Assembly (NCBI GenBank): GCA_044892525.1
Contig: CM097885.1
Location: 17,796,001-17,860,000 of the forward strand
Origin: Schmidtea polychroa
Taxonomy: Eukaryota
Reading direction: 5' to 3'
Length of the DNA stretch: 64,000 nucleotides
The notes beneath the pieces were generated by a model. It worked only from the letters and a program-made list of their open reading frames with translations, searched no databases and had not been told where the DNA came from. The translations under genes were made by a program, and so were the position numbers. Shown in pieces: positions 11,747 to 52,902 of the stretch. Numbering within the stretch: position 1 is the stretch's first letter; the number at the start of each line of letters is the position of its first letter.

Positions 11747-12298
11747 AGTAGATGGATTGGGCACCGCTAGCACAGTACCCCTCCCCCCCCCGCCGGTCGT
11801 AAAAATTTTTTCAAGGTCAAATTTTAAACAAAGACATATGGCTCATCAAGGTCATTGAAACAAAGACCATGACTCATCCGATGACTCATCAAATTTCTCA
11901 AGGTCATTTAAACAAAGACCACGCCTCATACTATGACTCATCAAGGTCATTGTCAAGGACATGTGACTCATAATATGACTCATCAATGTCAAAAATTTTT
12001 CAGGGTCATTTAAACAAAGACCCTGACTCATCAAGGTCATTATCAAGGTCACATGACTCATCCAAGGTCATTCTCAAGGCCATATGACCCATCCAAGGTC
12101 ATTCTCAAGGTCATATGACTCATACTATGACTCATCCAAGGTCAAAAAGTTTTCCAAGGTCTTTTCAAGGTCATCTGGGTCATCCTATGACTCATTAAGG
12201 TCGTTTTCAAGGTCGCATGACTCATCCAAGGTCATTCCCAAGGTCATATGAGTCATCTCGATGAGTCATCAAGGTCATATTATTTTTAAAAAATATTA
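11747..12298 (+). repeat. Left terminal inverted repeat of the Polinton
   Basis: Reverse complement of 52488-52902; built of TGACTCA, YCAAGGTCA and AAACAAAGAC sub-repeats. Confidence 0.93.
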
Positions 12299-36871: not shown

Positions 36872-37339
36872 TTAAACATCAAATTTTTTGTACAATAACC
36901 AAGCTAAACAATGTTGACCACATGTTTGGGTCAAAGGATTTTGAAACATAGTTTTATTATACACAATAGGTTTCCCCATTGTTTGTAGTTTTGATATCAA
37001 CAAAGCCGGGTAATAAAAACCCATAGGATCGAACACAAATATATAACCAGGTTTCATATATATAGCTATCCAATGTTCTCCACCAAGATGAGACGATTGA
37101 GTATTGACGACTATTGCTTGATTATTGCTCAAATATGGAATTTTATCAAGAGGAAAAACTCCAACAAATTCATTTCCCAATATCTGTTTTCCGATTTTAT
37201 TGACCTGAACAGAACTACTTAAATAAATCCAGAGTATAAAAAACAACTTACTCCATGACAACTTTTTGTGTTTCAATATACATTTATACCAACACAGTTC
37301 TATTTGCAGTAATTTGAACTTCATTTTCAAATACTCCAT
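36872..37339 (-). CDS. Adenain-like cysteine (maturation) protease
   Basis: FVGVFPLD, VNTQ...GEHWIAIY, FDPMG, FQ.....CGQHC (His/Asp/Gln/Cys catalytic set). True start may be ATG 37256 via a 34-nt intron 37218-37251 giving MDSSVQV. Confidence 0.92.
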   Translation of the reverse strand: MEYLKMKFKLLQIELCWYKCILKHKKLSWSKLFFILWIYLSSSVQVNKIGKQILGNEFVGVFPLDKIPYLSNNQAIVVNTQSSHLGGEHWIAIYMKPGYIFVFDPMGFYYPALLISKLQTMGKPIVYNKTMFQNPLTQTCGQHCLAWLLYKKFDV

Positions 37340-38504
37340 ATATTATAACATGTACTGGTTCAGTAATAGCTTTTGCAAACTTTATATCCAGTCGTAAATT
37401 TCCATTTTGAGGTAGTTGACTCTGATTTAAATCAAAATCAGGGGCTGAAACAAATGTAAAAAATGGGTATTTGCTTTTAAAATCTTCTAGAGTTATTCCG
37501 CAATTCAAATTTTTATCTAAATAACCCAGATTTCTAACAATACTCTGCATATATGTCGCACAGTAATTGTCATTCTCGAAATCTTGAATATATGTTTCTC
37601 TATAATCAGTATTTTTCGACAAAGTCAATGATGTAACACCAAAGTTTTTGAAAATTGAGCTGGACGCAGTATATGATCCATTATATTGTGCTTCACTTTG
37701 AAATGTTATCAGAATAAAATTAGGCATTCTTCTGTCACCAAATGTTTGTTCTTTATAGAATGATGAAGCACCTTTAGCAATAGCAAATTGTACAATTTCC
37801 TTTGTTTTTAATGGATAAATTGCATGTTTTGAATTAAGACCTAATTGATGACCTGCTAATACTGAGGGGTCTACTCGAACTCTTCTCACCAATAATTTTG
37901 CATCAACTAATTGACATATTGGTGCAGTAGTTGCACTAGTAAGAGATAATGCAGAATCAGACCTTTTCAGTCTAATATGTACATTAACTCCCGGTAGTAA
38001 ATATTTCGGTTGATCCATAAAATCAAGTTGTAATGATGAGCACATGGTGAAAACCTTTGAGCCTTTTACCCACTTTTTTCTTTCATCATCACTGCCATAG
38101 CCCATAGGAGTAAGACATGTATTTTTAGTATCGGAATTGTAATTTAACATAGTTTCTATTAATGCCTTGTGAATGAATGTATTATTTCCGCCCTTAATCT
38201 TGATATTATTAAATCCCAACACTGCATCTTTAAAAAGAGTATGAAACAGGAAATTGTTCGGTATTACATCTGCATTGGCATCCAAATCTTTATTATCTTT
38301 ATCTACAACCTTAATCTGAACAGTCAATAAAGTATCGTTCAAATCTAAATATTCGGTTTGCGAACCATTAATATAAAACTCGATATCATTTCTACTATCG
38401 GTAATTGAATTCATAGGAAAAACTTCCTCAAATGCCCCAAATTCTATTACAGCCTGGGGCGACGGTCTATCAAATATACATAATTCAGATTTACCACAAA
38501 TCAT
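37284..38504 (-). CDS. Major capsid protein (PY, double jelly-roll)
   Basis: N-terminal KSELCIF..P.PQ..I....EEVFP.....IEFYI.G....YLDL..T.L and C-terminal G.LRLDIKF.......IIYG.F...V.I...R.V typical of Polinton MCP; position between protease and PW-like gene. Confidence 0.88.
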   Translation of the reverse strand: MICGKSELCIFDRPSPQAVIEFGAFEEVFPMNSITDSRNDIEFYINGSQTEYLDLNDTLLTVQIKVVDKDNKDLDANADVIPNNFLFHTLFKDAVLGFNNIKIKGGNNTFIHKALIETMLNYNSDTKNTCLTPMGYGSDDERKKWVKGSKVFTMCSSLQLDFMDQPKYLLPGVNVHIRLKRSDSALSLTSATTAPICQLVDAKLLVRRVRVDPSVLAGHQLGLNSKHAIYPLKTKEIVQFAIAKGASSFYKEQTFGDRRMPNFILITFQSEAQYNGSYTASSSIFKNFGVTSLTLSKNTDYRETYIQDFENDNYCATYMQSIVRNLGYLDKNLNCGITLEDFKSKYPFFTFVSAPDFDLNQSQLPQNGNLRLDIKFAKAITEPVHVIIYGVFENEVQITANRTVLV

Positions 38505-38869
38505 TTTGCAAATATAGTTCCATGTTCTTTCATTCGTTTGTTTATACGCGATATTCCATGTCCTTTACGTTTTGGAGCTGGGGCTGGGGCTGGAGGCGTA
38601 TCTTTTTGAAACATACCAGCAACTCCAGGTAGAACCTTCCCTAACTCAGCTAAAGCATTTGTTTTTAGAGATGGTAATATTTTCTGTTCATTCATAATAA
38701 CATCTTTTGCAGTTTTCATACCAAAACTACCAATACGTTTAAGAATAGGCAGGGCAAATCTACCAATTGTTCTCAACCATCCTGATCCGTACTGTTTACC
38801 AATAAAATATGGTGATTCACCGCCAGATTGGCTACCACTATACATACTAATAATATCAGAATTAGCCAT
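38501..38869 (-). CDS. Small basic virion core/membrane-active protein (PW-like)
   Basis: Q.GG and QYGSGWLRTIGRFALPILKRIG motif (adenain-type site followed by an amphipathic helix); ATGA overlap with the MCP start. Confidence 0.75.
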   Translation of the reverse strand: MANSDIISMYSGSQSGGESPYFIGKQYGSGWLRTIGRFALPILKRIGSFGMKTAKDVIMNEQKILPSLKTNALAELGKVLPGVAGMFQKDTPPAPAPAPKRKGHGISRINKRMKEHGTIFAK

Positions 38870-39929
38870 TTATTTTACGTAAATGTAATGTCAAATGAGT
38901 TTTTGAGCCTTTTGGAAATTCGATTAATTGACCAGAATCATCTCTTATATTTATTTCTATATTGTTTATACAAAATGTTGAAACAGGTAAGTACATGGGA
39001 TTTTCTATATTGATTTGTACAACTTCATCTTGATCATGTTTTTCAATCCATATAGATTTCATTAAAGAAACACTAGAATCGCCAACAATAGCTGGTTCTA
39101 CGATATTACTGTAAATGAACATTTGCTGATGATGTTTAAGGATTTTCGGTTTGTTTGTTCCTTCACAAATTTGTTCATTTTGTGTACATACTGGTTTAGT
39201 CAATCCTAATGTTTTTGCCAAATTTGAGTCAAATTTAACTTGACTAAGATTAGAATTTATACTAAATCTAAATACTTTATCTTTTTGAAGCTCAAAAACT
39301 GTTAAAATCTCGCTACAATTGTCAGCTAAATAAGTTTGTAATTGTTCGAGGTCTGTAATATATAAATTATCTTTAAAAGTATATGCATGCTCTGTTATTT
39401 CAAAGTATGATAGCTTAAATTTGAATTCCACTAAATTATTAGTTTTTGGAAGTGTAGAGAGATTTATTTTGACTGTATCATTAAATACATTACGTAAATC
39501 AGTAAATCCAAGACGTTTAGCATCGGCCATTGTAGAAAATAAAATTTCGAATGGCTTATTCAAGCAATTCATGTATAAATATTGACCATTATCATAAATT
39601 ATAGGTTTCCTTGATTTCGATGAACTCGTCAAGTTATAACTATCTTTATCAATAAGAACACTAATATATTCCGTTACTGCTACTTTTTTATTATATTCAA
39701 TAACTGATTTGCTATAGATTGGGAATAAATTGTATACAAATGTAAAATCCAACAGAGCAACTTCCCAGTCATTATCCAAATAGATGGGGTTTTGGAGTTC
39801 GATGATGAATTTGCTTGCTTGATTTTCTGGATGAATTAATGGACAACTATTGCTCGGCAAAATAGTATAAAAATTCACTTTACTATGTCTTTTGCTGATA
39901 TCCATAACGGGTTTTGATAACCATGCCAT
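38862..39929 (-). CDS. Minor capsid / penton protein (PX)
   Basis: FYTILPSNS....PEN..SKF...L..PI.L...WEVAL N-terminus; MFIYSNIVEP.IVGD....L...P.YLPV....INNIEINIRDD.G..I.F...T.LTLHLR C-terminus. Confidence 0.9.
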   Translation of the reverse strand: MAWLSKPVMDISKRHSKVNFYTILPSNSCPLIHPENQASKFIIELQNPIYLDNDWEVALLDFTFVYNLFPIYSKSVIEYNKKVAVTEYISVLIDKDSYNLTSSSKSRKPIIYDNGQYLYMNCLNKPFEILFSTMADAKRLGFTDLRNVFNDTVKINLSTLPKTNNLVEFKFKLSYFEITEHAYTFKDNLYITDLEQLQTYLADNCSEILTVFELQKDKVFRFSINSNLSQVKFDSNLAKTLGLTKPVCTQNEQICEGTNKPKILKHHQQMFIYSNIVEPAIVGDSSVSLMKSIWIEKHDQDEVVQINIENPMYLPVSTFCINNIEINIRDDSGQLIEFPKGSKTHLTLHLRKING

Positions 39930-40507
39930 TTGACATAGTATTGTTTATCCTTACCGACCTTTTTAGTTTTCAATATTTTTTGAATTCTAAATACTTTTGG
40001 GGAAGGAATCACTTGTAATTCCTGCTCATAAAATTTCCCTTGTACAATATTATTATCATTGTCTTTGATGACATACATTACAGGATTCTGTTTAGTATTT
40101 ATTTTTGAAATTACAAAGACTTCATCACTCCAATTTGTATCAAAATTTTTAATAAATGGAGATGCACTAATTTTACTAATTCTAACATGGTCACCGACTT
40201 TATATTTAGGTTTTGCAATTTTTACAGATTTCTTAGAAGTCAATGATGTTTTTGATGTAATATCAACCGGTCTGAATCCATTCAGTCCTCGATGTGATGA
40301 ATGTTTATAACTTGTTATTATTTTCGGTAAAGCATTTACCCATTTTTTATTACCTTGATGCACGAACAATTTCTTTAATCTATCTCTCAATGTTCGATTA
40401 AATCTTTCAACATGGGCAGCTTTGTATTGAGAATGTACCGAGTAGTGATTTATTTTCAGTTTATCGAGGATTTGCTTAACTTTGCTATTGTAGAATTCTT
40501 TACCTAA

Positions 40508-40598
<91 letters not shown>

Positions 40599-40603
40599 TT
40601 AAA

Positions 40604-40662
<59 letters not shown>

Positions 40663-41104
40663 CTAAATCTGTTTGCAAGTTATTAGGATGTCCATCTTTA
40701 AATAAAATATTAATTGCCTTGGACATTTCTTCTGCAGATTTTGCCTTGACTGGTATTGCTCGTGCAAACCTGCTGTATACATTAATACATGTTAAAATAT
40801 ATTTATTCCCATTGTTAATTTTCGAATAAGGTATCATCTCCATCAAATCCATTTGCCATAAATCGTCAATACCAAATGTTTTATACGCTCTTGTTGGAAA
40901 TCTTTTCCGCATTGGTTTGTTCAAACTGTACGCAAGCTGATCTGATAACCACTTCTGGGTTTCTTTTTTCGAATTCGGAACTCTTTTGTTTAATTTTGCC
41001 ACTCCACCGAAACCGGCTTCGTCTTCTGGGTTCGTCCAAATCTTCTCCATTACATCAAGAAGATTTAAAATTAAATTTAATGTCGGGCAATGAAGGATTA
41101 GCAC
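39875..41104 (-). CDS. int: Retroviral-type (rve) integrase with C-terminal chromodomain-like segment; intron 40504-40662
   Basis: WQMDLMEM, YILTCINVYSRFA; splicing gives LQTDLGKEFYN; VERFNRTLR; YKVGDHVRIS; YYVKWHGY. Confidence 0.94.
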
Positions 41105-41111
41105 CCATTGT

Positions 41112-41402
41112 TTATGATTGATTTCCTACAACTCCACCTAATAATGATAATGCCAGAGGTATCAAGGCACCAATAAATCCACCTTGTTGTTTATATATAA
41201 TTTTCCTCATTTGCTTACGATTTTTATTATTTACTAAAGATAACAATGGTTTCCTATGTTTGCTCAATAAATGCTTTTTTGATTTACTGATTTTAATTTT
41301 GCCTTTGACTACTTTAAGTATAATATTGAGTAAATCATCGACAACAAAATTTGGGAATGATTGCAATATATTCATCCTTTTCATACTCGGGGCCTTTAAC
41401 AA
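41112..41402 (-). CDS. Small basic Polinton protein ending in QQGGFIGALIPLALSLL (putative core/membrane-lytic precursor)
   Basis: Q.GGF plus hydrophobic helix typical of Polinton small structural proteins; the frame stays open upstream (KPKRKTRKTRK) but the in-frame ATG appears lost. Confidence 0.7.
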   Translation of the reverse strand: MLKAPSMKRMNILQSFPNFVVDDLLNIILKVVKGKIKISKSKKHLLSKHRKPLLSLVNNKNRKQMRKIIYKQQGGFIGALIPLALSLLGGVVGNQS

Positions 41403-41665
41403 TGCATTAAAAATTGGAAAACTGCGATGATTTTTAACTACTTTTTTACTGATTTTACGGGTTTTACGGGTTTTACGTTTAGGTTTAGGATTTTTCGAAA
41501 TAAGATTGTCATGTTGGGGTTGAGAAATTTGGAGTATAGAGAATTTGTTGACAATGTTCGAAATGAGATAATTTCATTGGTCGATTTCTAATTGGTTAAT
41601 TTCTAATTGGTTATTGGTTGATTTAAACAAACGGTTTTTTGTTTAGGATTCATTTATTCAACAAC

Positions 41666-42770: not shown

Positions 42771-43192
42771 TGTTATATTTAATAAATGTATTAGTCATAT
42801 TTGTTTTTCTCTTTATTAATTGCAACATAAATGCAAATGACATGCAAATTTAACAAAGAAAATCTATAAACAAACTTATAATATAGTTTTAAAGTGATGA
42901 AAATGACTGCAGAAAAAGGTTAACATGATTAATTAATTACTGAATTATTTAGTATTTAGAATTTGTAATCAACTTTTTGTTGGAAAAGTTAGCAGAAATA
43001 TCTGGTGTGAAAATTGAGGACATATTATCTATTACAAATGCCTTAAATATCGGCTGGATAGTTGAGAGTCAAGATACAGGATTTGATGATGAAGAAGAAA
43101 CTCAAGAAATTGATGAGGAAGAAACTCAAAAAAATTGATGAGGAAATCTATGAACCTATAGATGAACCTATAGATGAACCTATAGAGGAACC

Positions 43193-44021
43193 TGTTTAAT
43201 TCAATGCTTGCGTCTGTGTGCGCTTTTTACTCTCCTTGTGTATTTTTGGTTGTGTGCGCACACAGACGCGTAAAATTGTGCATGGCAAGTATGTTTTTGG
43301 GGAATGCTTTTCGAGTTTAATTTTTTGTGTGTATTGTTTAGTGGAAATCGAGTTGTTGAGTTTTATTCGATTGGTTTTTTGAATAATTGAAATTTACAAT
43401 GGCAACATCTAAATATAACGGGGGATTGATGGATCTCGATGATTTAGTGGCAAGGTTGAATAGAACCCGCAGCAAAATGGAAATAGAAACTATTTGTAAA
43501 GACGATGTTATCAGATCTATCAAATCTATTAAAATTCTGGGTAATGGATTCTCTCTAATCACATTATCTCGAGACCGGCAATTAGTTCAATCTGTACCTG
43601 ATCAAAATGGCCGAATCGATATTGTTTTGTGTTCAGAAAGGAATAATATGAGATCAAATTTATGTGTAGCTACACAAAGACAGGTTCCAGATAAAATGAT
43701 TGAGAAGAGTTCAGCTACAAGATTGTTTAATATTACTGAAAGTACTGGAAGTGTTATGACTGGTATGATCCCTGATTATCGATCTCAAGTATGTCGTGCA
43801 CAAGTGGAAGCCGCTCGATTTAGATATAAACATGGATATGAAATGCCTTGCGACATAATAAGTCGTTCTGTTGCGGATATTAAGCAGTTTTCTACCCAAT
43901 CAACCGAGATGCGACCATTAGGTTGTTCAATGATGACATTATCTCCTGGTATGGACACGGAAAAACTGTTATTATTCAGAAATAAAATGATTATGTGTTA
44001 TTATGAATTTGAAAATGAACA
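43193..44021 (+). repeat. 5' LTR of BEL element (contains captured host coding fragments)
   Basis: Differs from 49650-50478 at ~3 positions, all in the first ~70 bp. Confidence 0.95.
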
Positions 44022-44439
44022 TGGTAACAGAGCGTGGTTCCGGCTAGCCAGCCGGAACAAGGTAATTAATGATTATAAAATGTCTTTTTTGTGTTTATGT
44101 ATATTATGTAAATATTATGTGTATTATGTGTTTACTAATATTTTTGTAAAATTAACCATCCTCCCTTCCCTACCAAGCGTGGGAAAGTGCTGCTATGGGC
44201 CCCAGCACTCTTTTAAAGGTGGAAGCCAGGGAAACAGGGTAAAGAACAGAGCTGAGTCAAGGGTGAGGGCGAACGGGGTAATGGGTTTTGAATTGCGATT
44301 GGAAAGTATAAATCAAATATTTGTCAAAACTCTTACTGGTAAGACAATAACTCTTAACATTGAATCGAACGACACAATTGAAAAGGTAAAAGGAAAAATC
44401 CAGGACGAAAAATCCAAGAGAATGAAAAATGAAAATTAA
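43387..44439 (+). CDS. Chimeric ORF: SNF8/Vps22 fragment (43399-43599) + proteasome subunit alpha-6 fragment (43666-43935) + ubiquitin fragment (44314-44409)
   Basis: [10 protein letters not shown]...[17 protein letters not shown]...LVQSVP (SNF8); TQRQVPDK...LFNITE..G.VMTGM..D.RSQV.RA..EAA..RYK.GYEMP.D.....AD..Q..TQ..EMRPLGC (PSMA6); [25 protein letters not shown] (ubiquitin). One continuous 350-codon frame. Confidence 0.85.
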
Positions 44440-44444
44440 CGAGA

Positions 44445-47400
44445 TTGAGAAACAAGATTCTCAATGATATAAATGGGAAGGATGTTAGCGAATGGTTGGC
44501 GGAATATGAAGATCAAAAGGAGAGTCTAGATGAAGAATTAGGGGATCTGAGAACGATCAGTAAAAAATTGCAAAGATTGGACATCACTGCAATCTTAGAT
44601 AAAGACCTGCAAGAGATCGAGGAAAAACATCAAATAATTGGGGCATTGGTGGAAAGAAAAGCAAATCAATCTTTTATGGAAAAGAAGGAAAAGGTGAATG
44701 ATGATACAATCAAGAAGAATAATTCCGTGCATAAAAGAAAACTGGAAAGTCTACAGAAAATTACAATCCCTGTTTTTGAAGGCAAGATGAAAGAGTACGA
44801 ACCATGGAAAGCAGCTTTTACGGCATGTGTTGACGAAGCGGAAGGTGATGAGGTTGAAAAGATGTTTCACCTGCACAAGTACCTTCACGGAGAGCCATTA
44901 AAGTTAATTGAAAATCTTAAATATTCGACAGAGGCTTATCAAATGGCAAAAGAGAAGTTGGATAGGCGATATGGTGGGGATGAAAGGATATATTTATCAA
45001 TGTTAGAGGAGATGGAACAGTTCAGGCCAATTCGAGAAGGAGATTTGAAGGATCTAGACTTATTTGTTGGATTATTAGAAACGGTCACCGTGCGATTTAA
45101 ATCCACTGGGAAAGAATTCGAGTTAAAGACTGGATATCTTTTTCAAAAGTGTTTGGGCAAGTTAACGACGAATTTTGTGTATAAATGGAAAAAAGACAAA
45201 ATAGAAAAGGAATTGCGGGAGACGATAGAGGATTTGAGAAGATGGATACAACAAGAAGCGGAGATCCTAAGGTCCATTAACGAGGTTGTGTATGGGACTA
45301 AACCAAGCACCAGGGCTTATGATGGGTCAAGAGTAGAAGGGGTGTCTAGAGGAAGAGAAAGATTCAATCCAGGAGGTCGGACGCATTTTACGGGCAACCA
45401 GATGGCAGAGTTAAAAGTGGAACGGTTATACAGGTGAATAACTCGAACGGCTATAGATCAGAGTGTGTACAATTTGGTGGTCAACATTACCTAGACCAAT
45501 GTGACAAGTTCAAGCAACTCACAATTCCAAAAAGGAAGAAAGTCATTGAAGAAAAGAAACTGTGCAGGAATTGCTTCAAAAGAAATCACATGGCCAAGGA
45601 ATGTCGTAAAGAATCTTTCTGCAAGGTTACCGGATGTAAGCAAAGGCACAACGAGTTATTACATGAAAGACAAATTAGTGAGGAGAGTGAAAAAGGTAAC
45701 AACACGATGCTGACCCAGAAAGGTATGAACGAGAAAAACCTAAGACCTTACCTTAGTTTAAGAACAATTTCAATCTACCTTTAAAATTGGAACAAGAAAA
45801 TAAAAGTCAATGCACTGTTAGATGATGCAAGCTCAGTAAGCTACATCAATCTAAGAATTTTAAAGGAGCTTGGGTTAAAAGGGGTGGAAAAGAGGACACC
45901 GATAGGGGTTATCGGCGGTAATGTCCAACAAATGATGGCTACTCCAGTGACCATGAAGTTAATTAGTAATGACGGCCGATTGACGAAAACGTCAACGCAC
46001 TGGCCGTAACAAATATCACGGGAGAAATGAAGGTAGTAAATTGGGCCAGAGAAAAACATAAGTGGACTCACCTGAAGGGCATCCATTTTCCGATGCTAGA
46101 CGAGAGACAGGCAGTTGAAGTGTTAATTGGCGCGGATTATTTAACGCTTCAACGAGCACTCAAAGAAATCGATGGTAAGTTGGATGAACCGATTGCCCGT
46201 TTAACTCCACTTGGCTGGACATGTGTTGGAAGAACCTCGGTGGGAAGAACTTGGAACCATCAAAGCAATTTCATACGAACGTTCTTCGGTAATGGCGAGG
46301 ATTTGCAACGACAAATGGAGCGATTTTGGGAAATTGATGATAGCGGCTTAAAGGAAAATATATTTGCAGCGAAAGACCAGGCGATTTATGAGAAAACCAA
46401 ATCTGAGATGAAGAAAGTAGACGGACATTTCGAGGTAAAAGTGCCATGGAAAGAGTCACCAACAGCTTTGCCCAATAGGGAAAAAATGGCAGAAAGTCGA
46501 CTGCGAAGTTTGGACAAGAGGCTTGAAAAGGAAGACTTACGAACTGAGTATCAGGATATTTTGAATGGTTACCTGAAAAAAGATTATATAAGTATTGTAA
46601 AAGAGAAAATGATGCCTGGAGATTCGGAATGGATATTACCACACTTTCCCGTGGTTAGAGGAGATAAGGACACCACGAAAGTGTGTATTGTGTTTGATGC
46701 AGCAGCCAGGTGTAATGGGGTGGGACTTAATGATATGGTGGAAGTTGGCCCAAAATTACAAAATGAAGTTTTTGATATTTTAATACGTTTTCGTCGATTT
46801 TCCTTAGCTGTGGTTTGTGATATAGTAGAAATGTATCTGCAAATAAGAATGGCTCTTGAAGACAGGAAATATCATCGGTTTTTATGGTCAACTGGGGGGA
46901 AAATTATTAAGTATGAGTTTATTCGGTTAGTGTTTGGTCTTAATGCATCTCCATTCCTTACCCAGCTAGTCGCGCAAGAGAATGCAAAGAAATTTGAAAA
47001 GGACTACCCAAAGGTGACAGAATCTATTTGCAAGTCTATGTATATGGACGACACTATGGACTCTGTTGATTCTGAAGAAGAAGGAATGAGGCTGAAAGAG
47101 GGGCTAGAAACAGTTTGAAGCAATGCCGGAATGTGGCCTAGAAAATGGCTGTCCAACTCGGAAAGAATTATGGCGACAATCCCAATTGAAGAACGAGCTA
47201 AAACACTGAATATTGAAAAGGAAACGACAATGGCCGTCAAGACCCTAGGTTTGAAATGGTACTCGGAAGACGATGAATTTAGTTTTCAAGTAGATCTGCC
47301 GAATGAAGAATGTTTATCGAAAAGAAAGGTATTGAGCATAGTGGCAAGAATCTTTGGTCCATTGGGACTGTTAGGCCCATTCATAATCATATGGAAAAAG

Positions 47401-49608
47401 ATTATTCACAGGTTGTGGTTGTCAGGGCTTGATTGGGACGAAAAGCTACCTCCAAAGTTGAATAAAGAAATACACAAGTGGGTAGAGGACACAAATAATC
47501 TCGGAGATCTGCGAATTGCGAGATGTTTAAGGACTCAAATGAAAAATGAATGGCAATTACATGTCTTTTCCGATGCGTCAAGCACCGCATATGGGTCAGC
47601 TATATATCTACGGGAAGAAACTATGGTGGGACCTAAAAATGTGTTGATTGCGTCAAGGGCAAAGGTAGCTCCAGTGCAAATTATAAGTATACCAAGGTTG
47701 GAATTAATGGCAGCGTGTACTGGAGTTAAATTAGCAAGACGGGTTTCAGAAGTGCTAGGGAAACCGATGAGTGAGATATGGTTCTGGTCCGATAGTAAAG
47801 ACGTAATACATTGGGTTCGAAATTATTCGAGGCTATTCAAGCCATTCGTAGCTAATCGAATTGGGTTCATTCAAGAAATGACCAAACCTGGGCAATGGCA
47901 TTATGTTCCAACAAGTGAAAATCCATCGGATTTGATCACAAGAGGATTATCGGCATCGGATTTGATAAAAAGCACCATGTGGTGGGAGGGACCGAAATTT
48001 CTACTAGAACCAATGGGAAATTGGCCAGCGACGGAGTTAAACCAATCCAGTGTAACAAAGGAGTTGCGAAAGGGAATAACAATGATGGCATGTGTAGAGG
48101 GGCAAAGACGAATAGGGAACACGGACTGTTTCAAAGTAGAAACCTTTTCCTCATGGCAGAGATTGATCAGGGTTCGGGCCTGGGTGGAGCGATTTATTTT
48201 GAACACGAGAACGACACAGTCCCAAAGAAGCACAGGGCAACTGACAACTGAGGAGCTTAAAAGAATGGAACTCAATGTAATTAAAGGAGAGCAGGCGAAG
48301 TTTTTCTCTGAAGACCTGGCACGACTTATCAAGAATGAAAGGGTAGATATCAGAAGCCGTTTGTTAAAGTTGACACCAGTTTTAGATGAGATGAAGGTGT
48401 TACGAAGTAATAGCCGCATAATTCATGCAAAGAATTTACCATGGGAGACAAAATATCCAATAATTCTATCTGACAAGAGTTGGGTCACCAGACTAATCAT
48501 CAAAGATTGCCATGAAAGTTTGAGCCATTATGCAGGAACTCAACATGTCTTAAGTGTGCTGAACGAAAAATATTGGATTTTGAAGGCCAAAGTAATGATC
48601 AAACAATGTGAGACAGATTGCGGAATGTGTAGAAAAAGAAAAGCTAAAGGAATGAGTCAAATAATGGCACCGTTACCGGCGTTCAGGGTTTCAGAACCTT
48701 TTAGAGCATTTGTTCACTCGGCAGTAGATTTTGCAGGACCGTTTGAAACTAAAGTAGGCAGAGGAAAGGTGAGAAATAAAAGGTACATTTGCCTATTCGT
48801 ATGTTTAAAGTCACGGGCGGTGCATATTGAAATGGCATATGGGTTGGACACAGACTCATTTATTCGAGCGTTTATGAGGTTTGCAGCGAGGCGGGGGATG
48901 CCAAAATTGATGATTTCAGACAATGGCACAAATTTTATAGGCGCCACTTCTACAGTAAAGAATTTTGTAATCGACAACTATAAAACTCAAAGAGAGTTGT
49001 CGAAGCATCAATGCAGTTGGATTTTCAATCCTCCATCAGCACCGCATTTTGGGGGAGTTTTTGAGTCCATGATCAAATCGGCAAAGCGAGCAATGAATGC
49101 AATACTGACAAGTGCAGATGTGACCGACGAGGAATTGGGAAATGTTTTGACAAGGGCTGAAATGTTGATAAATTCTCGGCCCTTAGTGGTTCAGGCAGTA
49201 GACAGTAAGGAAGACGCTGTGCTAACTCCAAATCATTTATTAATTGCCGTTTGGAAAGGAGAAGCTGTGGAAAATATAGAAGTGAAGAAAATGTCATGTA
49301 CTATGTTTCCGTGGAGACGAATTCAGGAGTTAACTGAACACTTTTGGCGGCGATGGATGAAAGAATTGGTCCCGTGCTGGCGGCGAAGGGCGAAATGGAA
49401 TAAGATAGAAGCTGATGTTAAGACAGGGTCAACAGTGTGGGTCTTAGACAAAAAGAATGAGTATGGAAAGTGGCCAATGGGGAGAGTAATCGAAGTGATA
49501 CCTGGAGAAGACGGAAAGCTACGCGTGATGAGGATAAAATGTGAAGTAAAGGAGGTATTAAGATGCATATCCAAATTAATGCATGATCGCAAAAGAAGGA
49601 GAAGTTAA
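44445..49608 (+). pseudogene. BEL/Pao gag-pol (gag, zinc knuckles, aspartic protease, RT, RNase H, integrase) with 2 frameshifts and 2 stops
   Basis: IPVFEG...W...F gag core; CRNCFKRNHMAKEC and CKVTGCKQRH; ALLDDAS protease; LPHFPV, VFDAA, YMDD; FSDAS, IPRLEL, WSDS; VDFAGP, SDNGTNF, PHFGGVFE. Breaks near 45435, 45782, 46010 and 47116. Confidence 0.95.
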
Positions 49609-49649
49609 TGGGGATGAGAGATTGACACCAAAGTGTCAAGGGGGGAGGA

Positions 49650-50478
49650 TGTTTAATTCGATGCTCGCGTCTGTGTGCGCTTTTTACTCTCCTTGTGTAT
49701 TTTTGGTTGTGTGTGCACACAGACGCGTAAAATTGTGCATGGCAAGTATGTTTTTGGGGAATGCTTTTCGAGTTTAATTTTTTGTGTGTATTGTTTAGTG
49801 GAAATCGAGTTGTTGAGTTTTATTCGATTGGTTTTTTGAATAATTGAAATTTACAATGGCAACATCTAAATATAACGGGGGATTGATGGATCTCGATGAT
49901 TTAGTGGCAAGGTTGAATAGAACCCGCAGCAAAATGGAAATAGAAACTATTTGTAAAGACGATGTTATCAGATCTATCAAATCTATTAAAATTCTGGGTA
50001 ATGGATTCTCTCTAATCACATTATCTCGAGACCGGCAATTAGTTCAATCTGTACCTGATCAAAATGGCCGAATCGATATTGTTTTGTGTTCAGAAAGGAA
50101 TAATATGAGATCAAATTTATGTGTAGCTACACAAAGACAGGTTCCAGATAAAATGATTGAGAAGAGTTCAGCTACAAGATTGTTTAATATTACTGAAAGT
50201 ACTGGAAGTGTTATGACTGGTATGATCCCTGATTATCGATCTCAAGTATGTCGTGCACAAGTGGAAGCCGCTCGATTTAGATATAAACATGGATATGAAA
50301 TGCCTTGCGACATAATAAGTCGTTCTGTTGCGGATATTAAGCAGTTTTCTACCCAATCAACCGAGATGCGACCATTAGGTTGTTCAATGATGACATTATC
50401 TCCTGGTATGGACACGGAAAAACTGTTATTATTCAGAAATAAAATGATTATGTGTTATTATGAATTTGAAAATGAACA
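49650..50478 (+). repeat. 3' LTR of BEL element, with second copy of the SNF8-PSMA6 ORF (49844-50488)
   Basis: Translation identical to the 5' copy through ...YYEFENE. Confidence 0.95.
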
Positions 50479-50677
50479 GAACCTATAGATGAACCTATAG
50501 AGGAACCTAAAGGTGAATCTAAAGATAATATTACGAATGATTGTATTGATCATGTCGTTGAAAATATAATGAAATGTGGAGATGACGACTGCGAATGTGT
50601 TAATTAATAAATTTTAGTTAATTAGTGTTTGTAAATTTATTTAAAATTTTATTTAAAAATTAAACAAAATAACTATA

Positions 50678-52487: not shown

Positions 52488-52902
52488 AATATTTTTTTAA
52501 AATAATAATATGACCTTGATGACTCATCGCGATGACTCATATGACCTTGAGAATAACCTTGGATGAGTCATGCGACCTTGAAAATGTCCTTGATGAGTCA
52601 TGGCCTTTGTTTAAATGACCTTGGGAAATTTTTGCCCTTGACGAGTCATATTATGAGTCATATGACCTTGAAAATGACCTTGATGAGTCATAGTATGAGT
52701 CATGGTCTTTGTTTAAATGACCTTGAGCAATTTGATGAGTCATCGGGTAAGTCATGGTCTTTGTTTCAATGACCTTGATGAGTCATATGTCTTTGTTTAA
52801 AATTTGACCTTGAAAAAAAATTTTTTTTTTAATTTTTACGACCGGTGGGGGGGGCTACTGTGCTAGCGGTGCCCTGTGCCAGCGGTGCCCAATCCATCTA
52901 CT
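52488..52902 (-). repeat. Right terminal inverted repeat of the Polinton
   Basis: Reverse complement of the left TIR, with fewer sub-repeats and a short internal duplication near the end. Confidence 0.93.

Follow-up and report, generated by a model that had tools for sequence, protein, structure and literature searches.

The window analysed here, a stretch of 64,000 nucleotides from Schmidtea polychroa (contig CM097885.1), contains a BEL/Pao retrotransposon at 43193-50478 whose two long terminal repeats (LTRs) carry an in-frame fusion of fragments of the host genes SNF8 and PSMA6. We consider it probable that this SNF8-PSMA6 open reading frame (ORF) occupies, as one filling among others, an exchangeable slot heading a single frame, which would pass from the LTR cargo through the primer-binding site (PBS) and a linker into a ubiquitin ending in Gly-Gly, and on into Gag-Pol. 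The LTR ORF starts a leader-ubiquitin-Gag-Pol frame, which a preliminary description of this DNA had missed. The window's copy is without the second half of the ubiquitin, so the link between LTR and Gag is hidden there, and a deletion at the ubiquitin/Gag junction, found in this copy only, severs the LTR ORF from Gag. The element is laid out as follows.

43188..43192, + strand: target-site duplication GAACC, 5 bp, with its second copy at 50479-50483
43193..44021, + strand: 5' LTR, 829 bp, TG...CA, differing from the 3' LTR at 3 positions
43209..43270, + strand: GC-rich palindrome forming a hairpin at the 5' end of the LTR, from LTR alignments (fold of -34.2 kcal/mol over the first 98 nt)
43352..43640, + strand: captured SNF8/Vps22 piece, reaching to about host aa 203, from Pfam, protein and host-gene matches
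43666..43981, + strand: captured PSMA6 piece, host aa 49-153, about 105 codons, with a 43-nt intron missing at 43834/43835
43981..43986, + strand: AATAAA, read in frame as Asn-Lys, from a census of A[AT]TAAA in the copies
44022..44040, + strand: PBS, read in frame as (H)G-S/N-R-A-W-F, from LTR structure and sister-copy alignment
44023..44313, + strand: linker from the PBS to ubiquitin, stop-free in the LTR/Gag frame only, with a donor-like site AAG/GTAATT (GT at 44062)
44314..44412, + strand: ubiquitin remnant, residues 2-34; sister copies have the whole domain with an LRLCGG end, in frame with Gag
44424..49608, + strand: BEL/Pao gag-pol, with DUF1759 Gag, CCHC knuckle, reverse transcriptase (YMDD), Peptidase_A17, integrase and DUF5641
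49638..49649, + strand: polypurine tract, from LTR structure
49650..50478, + strand: 3' LTR, 829 bp, with the same SNF8-PSMA6 ORF (ATG at 49856; no stop within the LTR; the frame ends at 50488 in the flank)

The 5' LTR ORF is stop-free from 43387, has its first ATG at 43399, an internal Met of host SNF8, and crosses the PBS into the ubiquitin remnant, giving 350 aa. In sister copies the frame continues. Several SNF8 matches in the 781-Mb assembly (four large contigs, GC about 30%) belong to open frames 500-1,400 codons long. Twenty regions were chosen for their long frames, and for that reason excluded from the frequencies given below; in most of them the LTR ORF runs through the PBS and the linker into a complete ubiquitin (PF00240 positions 1-71 matched, LRLCGG end) and then into Gag, in some cases on into Pol.

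Frequencies were taken from a separate sample. A search with the N-terminus of the window's Gag gave 701 candidates, of which 150 were scored; 11 of these 150 lie in open frames of more than 1,900 codons. The sample comprises 90 loci (ranks 1-30 and 60 spread across ranks 31-150). Ubiquitin precedes Gag in 89 of them, and the remaining one (L173) had been fetched from the wrong side of the Gag match. PBS counts refer to 81 loci, leaving out L173 and eight without a PBS match. The copies in all frame and variant counts are related and non-independent, and P values therefore overstate independence. The distance from PBS to Gag preserves the frame in 55 of the 81 copies and, counted by shared length class, in 11 of 15; net lengths were used here, in place of indel counts from pairwise alignments, which are noisy in the AT-rich linker. 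Of the PSMA6 pieces, 53 of 56 share the PBS frame, as do 23 of 25 SNF8 pieces, and the frame is open from Gag for more than 50 codons into the LTR in 39/81 copies, as against 1/81 for each of the other two frames. Of 73 distinct linkers, 49 have an in-frame length; these show 8 stops in 5,432 in-frame codons versus 444 and 488 in the other frames, and shuffles of nine linkers gave a probability of at most 0.0025 for the absence of stops. Of 89 copies, 74 have the Gly-Gly in frame, 8 have it changed and 7 have it out of frame.

Since the copies are related, what counts as independent is how many unrelated cargo ends and junctions fall in one frame. Both the unrelated cargo ends and the two-gene junctions number at least five, and all lie in the Gag frame. 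This count bears on the possibility that the cargo is a pure passenger in an untranscribed U3 region of the LTR, its link to Gag inherited by chance. Young coding fragments would be stop-free anyway, and as the captures are young and the copies related, openness by itself needs no selection. Such an account would nevertheless have to place every one of these ends and junctions in the Gag frame by accident, and it sits poorly with an AT-rich linker that is open in one frame only, with the different but likewise open linker of a second Gag family, and with a depletion of stops among shared variants that singletons do not show. We regard it as very improbable.

The cargo itself varies widely. Among the 81 copies, SNF8 occurs in 25 (24 of them also with PSMA6), PSMA6 behind an L164-type piece in 18, the L164-type piece alone in 2, an unnamed gene A in 9, an unnamed gene B in 6 and PSMA6 alone in 6. 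Four copies carry a Rab1-like piece with PSMA6, three a tandem repeat with PSMA6, three another unknown piece and one an Endonuclease_7-like piece with a PSMA6 tail; none was assigned in four. In all there are more than 10 combinations, with PSMA6 missing from about a third of the copies and SNF8 from two thirds. The L164-type piece may be RNF126/115-like, judging from its motif; Pfam, PDB and homolog searches did not confirm this. The cargo of L101 resembles the Endonuclease_7/C2H2 clusters of Polinton-type polymerases, which is a lead only. The sources of genes A and B are host loci with introns; in the LTR their exons follow one another directly, each 94-100% identical to the host, and neither gene received a name. 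Ten copies bearing six cargo types are 95-99.7% identical over the PBS, the linker, ubiquitin and 120 Gag codons, so exchange must be fast. These comparisons of copies show LTR types exchanged among near-identical interiors, and even between Gag families. The family is young, as LTR pairs are 96.7-100% identical in 18 of 20 larger regions.

The preliminary description had proposed an SNF8-PSMA6 fusion in both 829-bp LTRs, and searches with each segment bear it out. The SNF8 piece matches Pfam EAP30 (E 2.7e-9) and human SNF8 (E 6.5e-8), and the PSMA6 piece matches Pfam Proteasome (E 1.3e-17) and PSMA6 (E 1e-30), with a flatworm protein as its best database match. The limits given for the segments needed correction: PSMA6 homology extends to 43981 rather than 43935. 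Both are partial domains, covering positions 99-197 of 219 in EAP30 and 17-113 of 189 in Proteasome. Misassembly, also raised in that description, is ruled out by 1,717 LTR candidates in the assembly (40 of them scored) and by contigs from public runs that bear the same LTR-type junctions. A contig of run X3, which is labelled as a different organism (organism B), and a metagenome protein, P0001, contain the SNF8-PSMA6 junction with a 45-nt stretch of SNF8 retained that the window's LTR has lost.

The preliminary description had noted that both pieces are intronless. This is informative for PSMA6 only, because the coding region of host SNF8 (L031) is itself one 244-codon frame without introns. 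Host PSMA6 (L068) has three introns of 50, 43 and 42 nt, and the 43-nt intron is precisely absent from the LTR, which indicates capture via mRNA. Template switching, suggested in the preliminary description, is supported by this loss and by a 6-nt GAAAAG which PSMA6-type LTRs without SNF8 have in common with SNF8 at its 3' junction; this candidate microsimilarity lies at the single switch point scored. At sequence level, intron loss shows the capture of host mRNA, and together with the junction homology it points to template switching. The SNF8 piece was probably added later, to an LTR already bearing PSMA6, because GAAAAG is common to PSMA6-only LTRs and PSMA6 pieces are both commoner than SNF8 pieces and more diverged (76-96% identity to the host, against 93.6-98.0% for SNF8).

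Relative to the host gene, the window's SNF8 piece is 94% identical over 251 nt, followed by a 45-nt gap and then 48 nt more. The missing in-frame 45 nt (at 43600/43601) are kept in 15 distinct copies; an exact-string count of copies with and without them was discarded, as it missed variant copies. They start with GTGAGT, end in AG and have one base of flanking homology. Two further in-frame GT...AG losses were found, one of 45 nt at the SNF8/PSMA6 join, also with short flanking homology, and one of 51 nt in another cargo. The 45-nt SNF8 loss looks like a cryptic intron spliced out of element RNA that was then re-copied. Two observations on related host loci may be added. The proteasome alpha genes include a duplicate pair, L043/L044, about 12 kb apart, and similar alpha-type genes, L042/L045, on different contigs, and L069 is a decayed copy of the 3' half of PSMA6.

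Each distinct variant was counted once against the host genes, and variants shared by at least two haplotypes were compared with singletons. Non-synonymous to synonymous counts were 13/5 for shared SNF8 variants (omega about 1.1) and 15/4 for singletons, and 60/14 (omega about 1.4) and 48/22 for PSMA6; linker omega was about 0.8. The window's PSMA6 piece compared directly with its host gene gives dN 0.108 and dS 0.097 (dN/dS about 1.1). For Gag codons 1-120 the shared count was 21/24, with omega 0.29 for shared and 1.16 for singleton variants (P 1.7e-4); this control was part of the search query used to select the copies, which biases its omega downward. A second control, Gag 121-520, is invalid because the reference copy changes frame inside that stretch. 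Stop variants in cargo and linker behave differently: one is shared where 7.3 are expected (P 0.006), while singletons number 7 against 8.1 expected. Cargo indels are multiples of three in 7 of 7 cases common to at least three copies versus 6 of 16 singletons. The element's ubiquitin differs from 19 host ubiquitin loci by a dN of about 0.22 and a dS of at least 1.6, and is thus old and constrained. Statistically, on these related copies, selection keeps the frame and the ubiquitin and does not keep the amino acids of SNF8 and PSMA6, which drift neutrally. The preliminary description had seen the frame as kept, which stop depletion and frame coupling support beyond chance. It had also named random frameshifts and dN/dS near 1 as the marks of a neutral passenger; the outcome is split, as dN/dS is indeed near 1 and random frameshifts are not seen.

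These results leave little room for the suggestion, made in the preliminary description, of an SNF8-PSMA6 chimera under selection as an accessory or decoy protein that would act on ESCRT-II or the proteasome. Preservation of the frame would fit a decoy, as would the wide occurrence of PSMA6 (1,499 candidates) and the first SNF8 stretch of the window, whose 67 codons are identical in protein to the host, with no non-synonymous and 3 synonymous differences. Those three differences could, however, be changes in the host gene after capture. Shared variants are neutral in both pieces, only partial domains are present, and in other subfamilies large in-frame deletions cut both pieces, removing 46-72 codons of PSMA6. 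Near-identical elements are without either piece and have unrelated cargo instead; over the whole sample, PSMA6 and SNF8 are missing in the proportions given above. The decoy is largely refuted by omega near 1 and appears highly unlikely. The associated theme of captures from ubiquitin-linked pathways holds at most in part, as Rab1 and the spliced genes A and B are unrelated cargo, and so is the HSP90 piece of a distant relative.

The layout is not confined to one Gag family. A Pfam ubiquitin search of the genome gave 1,240 candidates and brought to light a second Gag family, in which LTR cargo (for instance Rab1 with PSMA6) is followed by a different open linker and two ubiquitins, with the PBS phase the same in all nine PBS-bearing loci displayed. 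Its first ubiquitin ends in LRLRGG and was copied very recently from a host polyubiquitin unit (dS 0.02). Gene B cargo also adjoins a two-ubiquitin locus. A Gag-only query against 1.84 billion representative proteins returned 150 distant relatives, of which at least six have ubiquitin directly before Gag, five of the six ending in Gly-Gly; as many of the 150 are N-terminally incomplete, six is a floor. In one, P0011, a GSRA motif comes first, followed by an HSP90 piece (E 1e-11), ubiquitin and Gag, all in frame.

We propose the following mechanism for the exchangeable leader. The LTR is the first part copied when reverse transcription sets out from the PBS, and switching onto co-packaged host mRNAs at short homologies would insert host pieces there. 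Transcription from near the 5' end of the LTR would turn the cargo into a leader for the genomic RNA. Leaders with a stop or a frameshift would prevent Gag-Pol from being made, or make the RNA a target of nonsense-mediated decay, and only open versions would spread. Ubiquitin would let host enzymes free Gag-Pol from any leader, whose content could then change freely; removal at Gly-Gly would explain why any cargo is tolerated. Host hydrolases cut the ubiquitin of the pestivirus bovine viral diarrhoea virus (BVDV). By analogy with such pestivirus insertions, and provided that the rest of the scheme holds, cleavage after Gly-Gly by host deubiquitinases seems somewhat likelier than its absence.

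Some features of the LTR fit this scheme. In 84 of 92 copies an A[AT]TAAA is found no more than 70 nt from the LTR end, against 37 of 486 background windows, and it reads Asn-Lys in frame in the copies displayed. It is likely a poly(A) signal, which would imply a very short U5. The poly(A) site would then probably lie at the LTR end, placing the cargo in the R region if it is translated, or in U3 otherwise. Most likely the cargo would be transcribed and translated from the 5' LTR, within a long R ahead of AATAAA. The 5'-end hairpin, found also in the other LTR types examined and sometimes duplicated, is a candidate U3/promoter element. A splice-donor-like AAG/GT (44059-44067 in the window) is fixed 37 nt into the PBS-linker in 71 of 92 copies, and the copies without it have a different linker start. 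By analogy with retroviruses, this donor-like site might keep the 5' LTR's poly(A) signal from being used.

Several observations weigh against a translated leader with cleavage at ubiquitin. The PBS-to-Gag length is off-frame in 26/81 copies, including four shared length classes (563 in four copies; 573, 624 and 638 in two each). The count of all indels in cargo and linker is weak (in frame 21/38 shared versus 18/52 singleton, P 0.057), and selection on ubiquitin within the family is not significant (omega 0.54 versus 0.83, P 0.17). Many copies have out-of-frame ATGs between the hairpin and the ORF, which complicates a first-AUG model, and a first-ATG analysis of the sampled copies gave no clean pattern. 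A conserved Met directly 5' of ubiquitin could be the true Gag start. The element's ubiquitin has Cys in place of Arg74, and its LRLCGG end, instead of LRLRGG, makes cleavage uncertain. The transcription start, translation and cleavage are steps that we infer from the arrangement of the DNA. Contigs from public runs, three guessed to be RNA and one unlabelled, cover the LTR, linker and gag with LTR-type variants, and flanking sequence too; none spans them, and they give no evidence either way on expression.

The Cys at position 74, seen in the family of the window's element, raises the possibility that ubiquitin is retained on Gag, or cut slowly, and acts as a trafficking, ESCRT or turnover signal, the leader being tolerated in some other way. 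Against this, R42, I44 and V70 take part in the binding of ubiquitin to its receptors, and this surface is altered in the family (R42M, I44V, V70S). Also against it, the Gly-Gly end is kept in this family and in five of the six distant relatives, and a Pfam scan of the window's element revealed no envelope gene. In favour of such a signal, ubiquitin on Gag promotes ESCRT-mediated HIV-1 budding (in the part of PMC3751857 used here). On balance we find a retained signal rather unlikely.

A different alternative, compatible with the leader model, places the benefit at the RNA level. Fresh pieces of host mRNAs that are both essential and highly expressed would, through their nucleotide identity with host genes, make silencing by PIWI-interacting RNAs (piRNAs) costly, the frame being only a constraint. 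The cargo comes from housekeeping genes (PSMA6, SNF8, Rab1, ubiquitin, HSP90), and repeated replacement by young captures is seen in the identities to host genes given above. In planarians, PIWI proteins act on LTR elements and coding mRNAs alike, according to the portion of PMC6824462 consulted, and a like conflict has been proposed for maize (10.1101/777037, likewise in part). Random co-packaging would, however, also predict the capture of abundant mRNAs, and strongly diverged PSMA6 pieces endure in multi-copy subfamilies. We consider a shield of this kind rather unlikely; the cargo may benefit the element in this way or be tolerated only. A broader extension, which we put forward as speculative and doubt more than we believe, is that throughout a BEL/Pao clade the ubiquitin cut site uncouples Gag-Pol from the start of translation, so that an LTR cassette might sample, fuse, translate and spread host mRNAs in thousands of copies, with captures of essential genes favoured as a piRNA shield.

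The window's element itself is damaged. TG...CA LTRs, the target duplication, PBS and polypurine tract are all present, and the domains found by Pfam (DUF1759, RVT_1, Peptidase_A17, DUF5641) follow the order Gag-protease-RT-RNase H-integrase (RT, reverse transcriptase). As reported in the preliminary description, gag-pol is disrupted at four points, by two frame changes and two in-frame stops, and the three LTR differences, at 43203, 43209 and 43257, all lie 5' of the ORF; the ubiquitin/Gag-junction deletion is a fifth lesion. The PBS is one that we take to resemble the 3' end of initiator-Met tRNA; no tRNA gene was found within the 64-kb window.

Many derivatives of about 4.8 kb (L071-L078, L081-L083, L087, L088) are without most of pol and keep leader, ubiquitin and Gag; several have one unbroken frame of 1,150-1,290 codons, with no identity assigned to its final 300-450 residues. 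At L084 (a 651-codon frame) and L086, the LTR ORF continues in frame into unrelated neighbouring sequence, which at L084 is the reverse transcriptase/RNase H of another element. Solo LTRs could thus act as seeds of fusion ORFs.

Other repeats and element-like genes occur in the window. A Polinton/Maverick-like block adjoins it at 36872-41573 (- strand), with neighbours to about 42770, and contains an adenovirus-type protease, an rve integrase with chromodomain, and unassigned ORFs of 426 and 360 aa; its integrase ORF is unbroken across a long in-frame (ATT)n expansion. Inverted repeats at 11801-12298 and 52490-52823, about 40 kb apart, match over 293 nt at 91% and 112 nt at 90%, with short sub-repeats, and are possibly the terminal repeats of a large element enclosing the BEL/Pao copy. 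A direct repeat at 20060 and 34097, at least 300 nt long, 100% identical and 14 kb apart, may represent the LTRs of another element.

If the leader model is true, these elements represent a retrotransposon design with a mostly coding, host-derived and exchangeable LTR that is open by frame selection alone, ubiquitin being the likely site of Gag-Pol release. They are a natural system, with hundreds of dated copies, in which selection on the frame is told apart from selection on the protein, and would allow a direct test in an animal of gene capture as a transposon shield against small-RNA silencing. They are also a source of in-frame domain shuffling. In practical terms, gene annotation, read mapping and the design of RNA interference in this genome will be confounded by near-identical pieces of PSMA6, ubiquitin, SNF8 and Rab1, which number from hundreds to more than a thousand.

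The components belong to known kinds, namely BEL/Pao elements, LTR-mediated capture and ubiquitin as a processing signal, while the arrangement itself is undescribed in the literature searched. That search found no report of a ubiquitin-Gag BEL/Pao element or of in-frame host cargo within LTRs; Repbase entries and supplements lay outside it and may already note ubiquitin in planarian BEL. Coding sequence within an LTR has precedents. The GAG of yeast Ty1 begins inside the 5' LTR, with few LTR codons and a coding PBS (a look-up did not confirm this), and the sag gene of mouse mammary tumour virus is a fixed U3 ORF inside the LTR, expressed from spliced RNA. Ty1 shares with our elements a PBS within the frame. 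Unlike both, the elements studied here have a slot of roughly 200 codons filled with replaceable host fragments.

The planarian BEL/Pao elements of the Flow superfamily, as presented in the part of the survey drawn on here (PMC3118150), have the same TG...CA LTRs, 5-bp duplication, PBS and polypurine tract, and the same single gag-pol with DUF1759 Gag, reverse transcriptase, Peptidase_A17, integrase and DUF5641. The likeness is one of layout. In our elements, the frame begins inside the LTR, crosses the PBS and has ubiquitin before Gag; the word "ubiquitin" is absent from the main text of that survey. The giant Gypsy elements Burro/GYPSM1 (PMC6431247) are likewise planarian LTR elements, with a polyprotein containing host-like domains, including one that is ubiquitin/SUMO-like. 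They are Gypsy rather than BEL, and their domains are internal, 3' of Gag, and not described as exchangeable or LTR-encoded in the sections of that paper considered here.

LTR-mediated retroposition (Tan et al. 2016, PMC5131818, of which a part is used here) proceeds by switches of template where about 6 nt are alike and yields partial mRNAs, intron loss and chimeras of several parents, with one BEL example from a mosquito. Introns are similarly absent from the captured PSMA6 and from gene A and B cargo, as in retrocopies. The captures described in that part replace the internal ORF and make the element non-autonomous, whereas here the cargo lies inside both LTRs, gag-pol is kept, and the cargo is in frame with Gag and swapped between subfamilies. 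The closest parallel for ubiquitin is cytopathic BVDV, in which, according to the portion of PMC13517609 relied on, one or two copies of host ubiquitin have been repeatedly captured into a polyprotein, directly before a protein needing release, often with other cellular or duplicated sequence 5' of the ubiquitin, as in our elements. Those insertions are sporadic events in an RNA virus, whereas here ubiquitin is fixed in a clade of retrotransposons.
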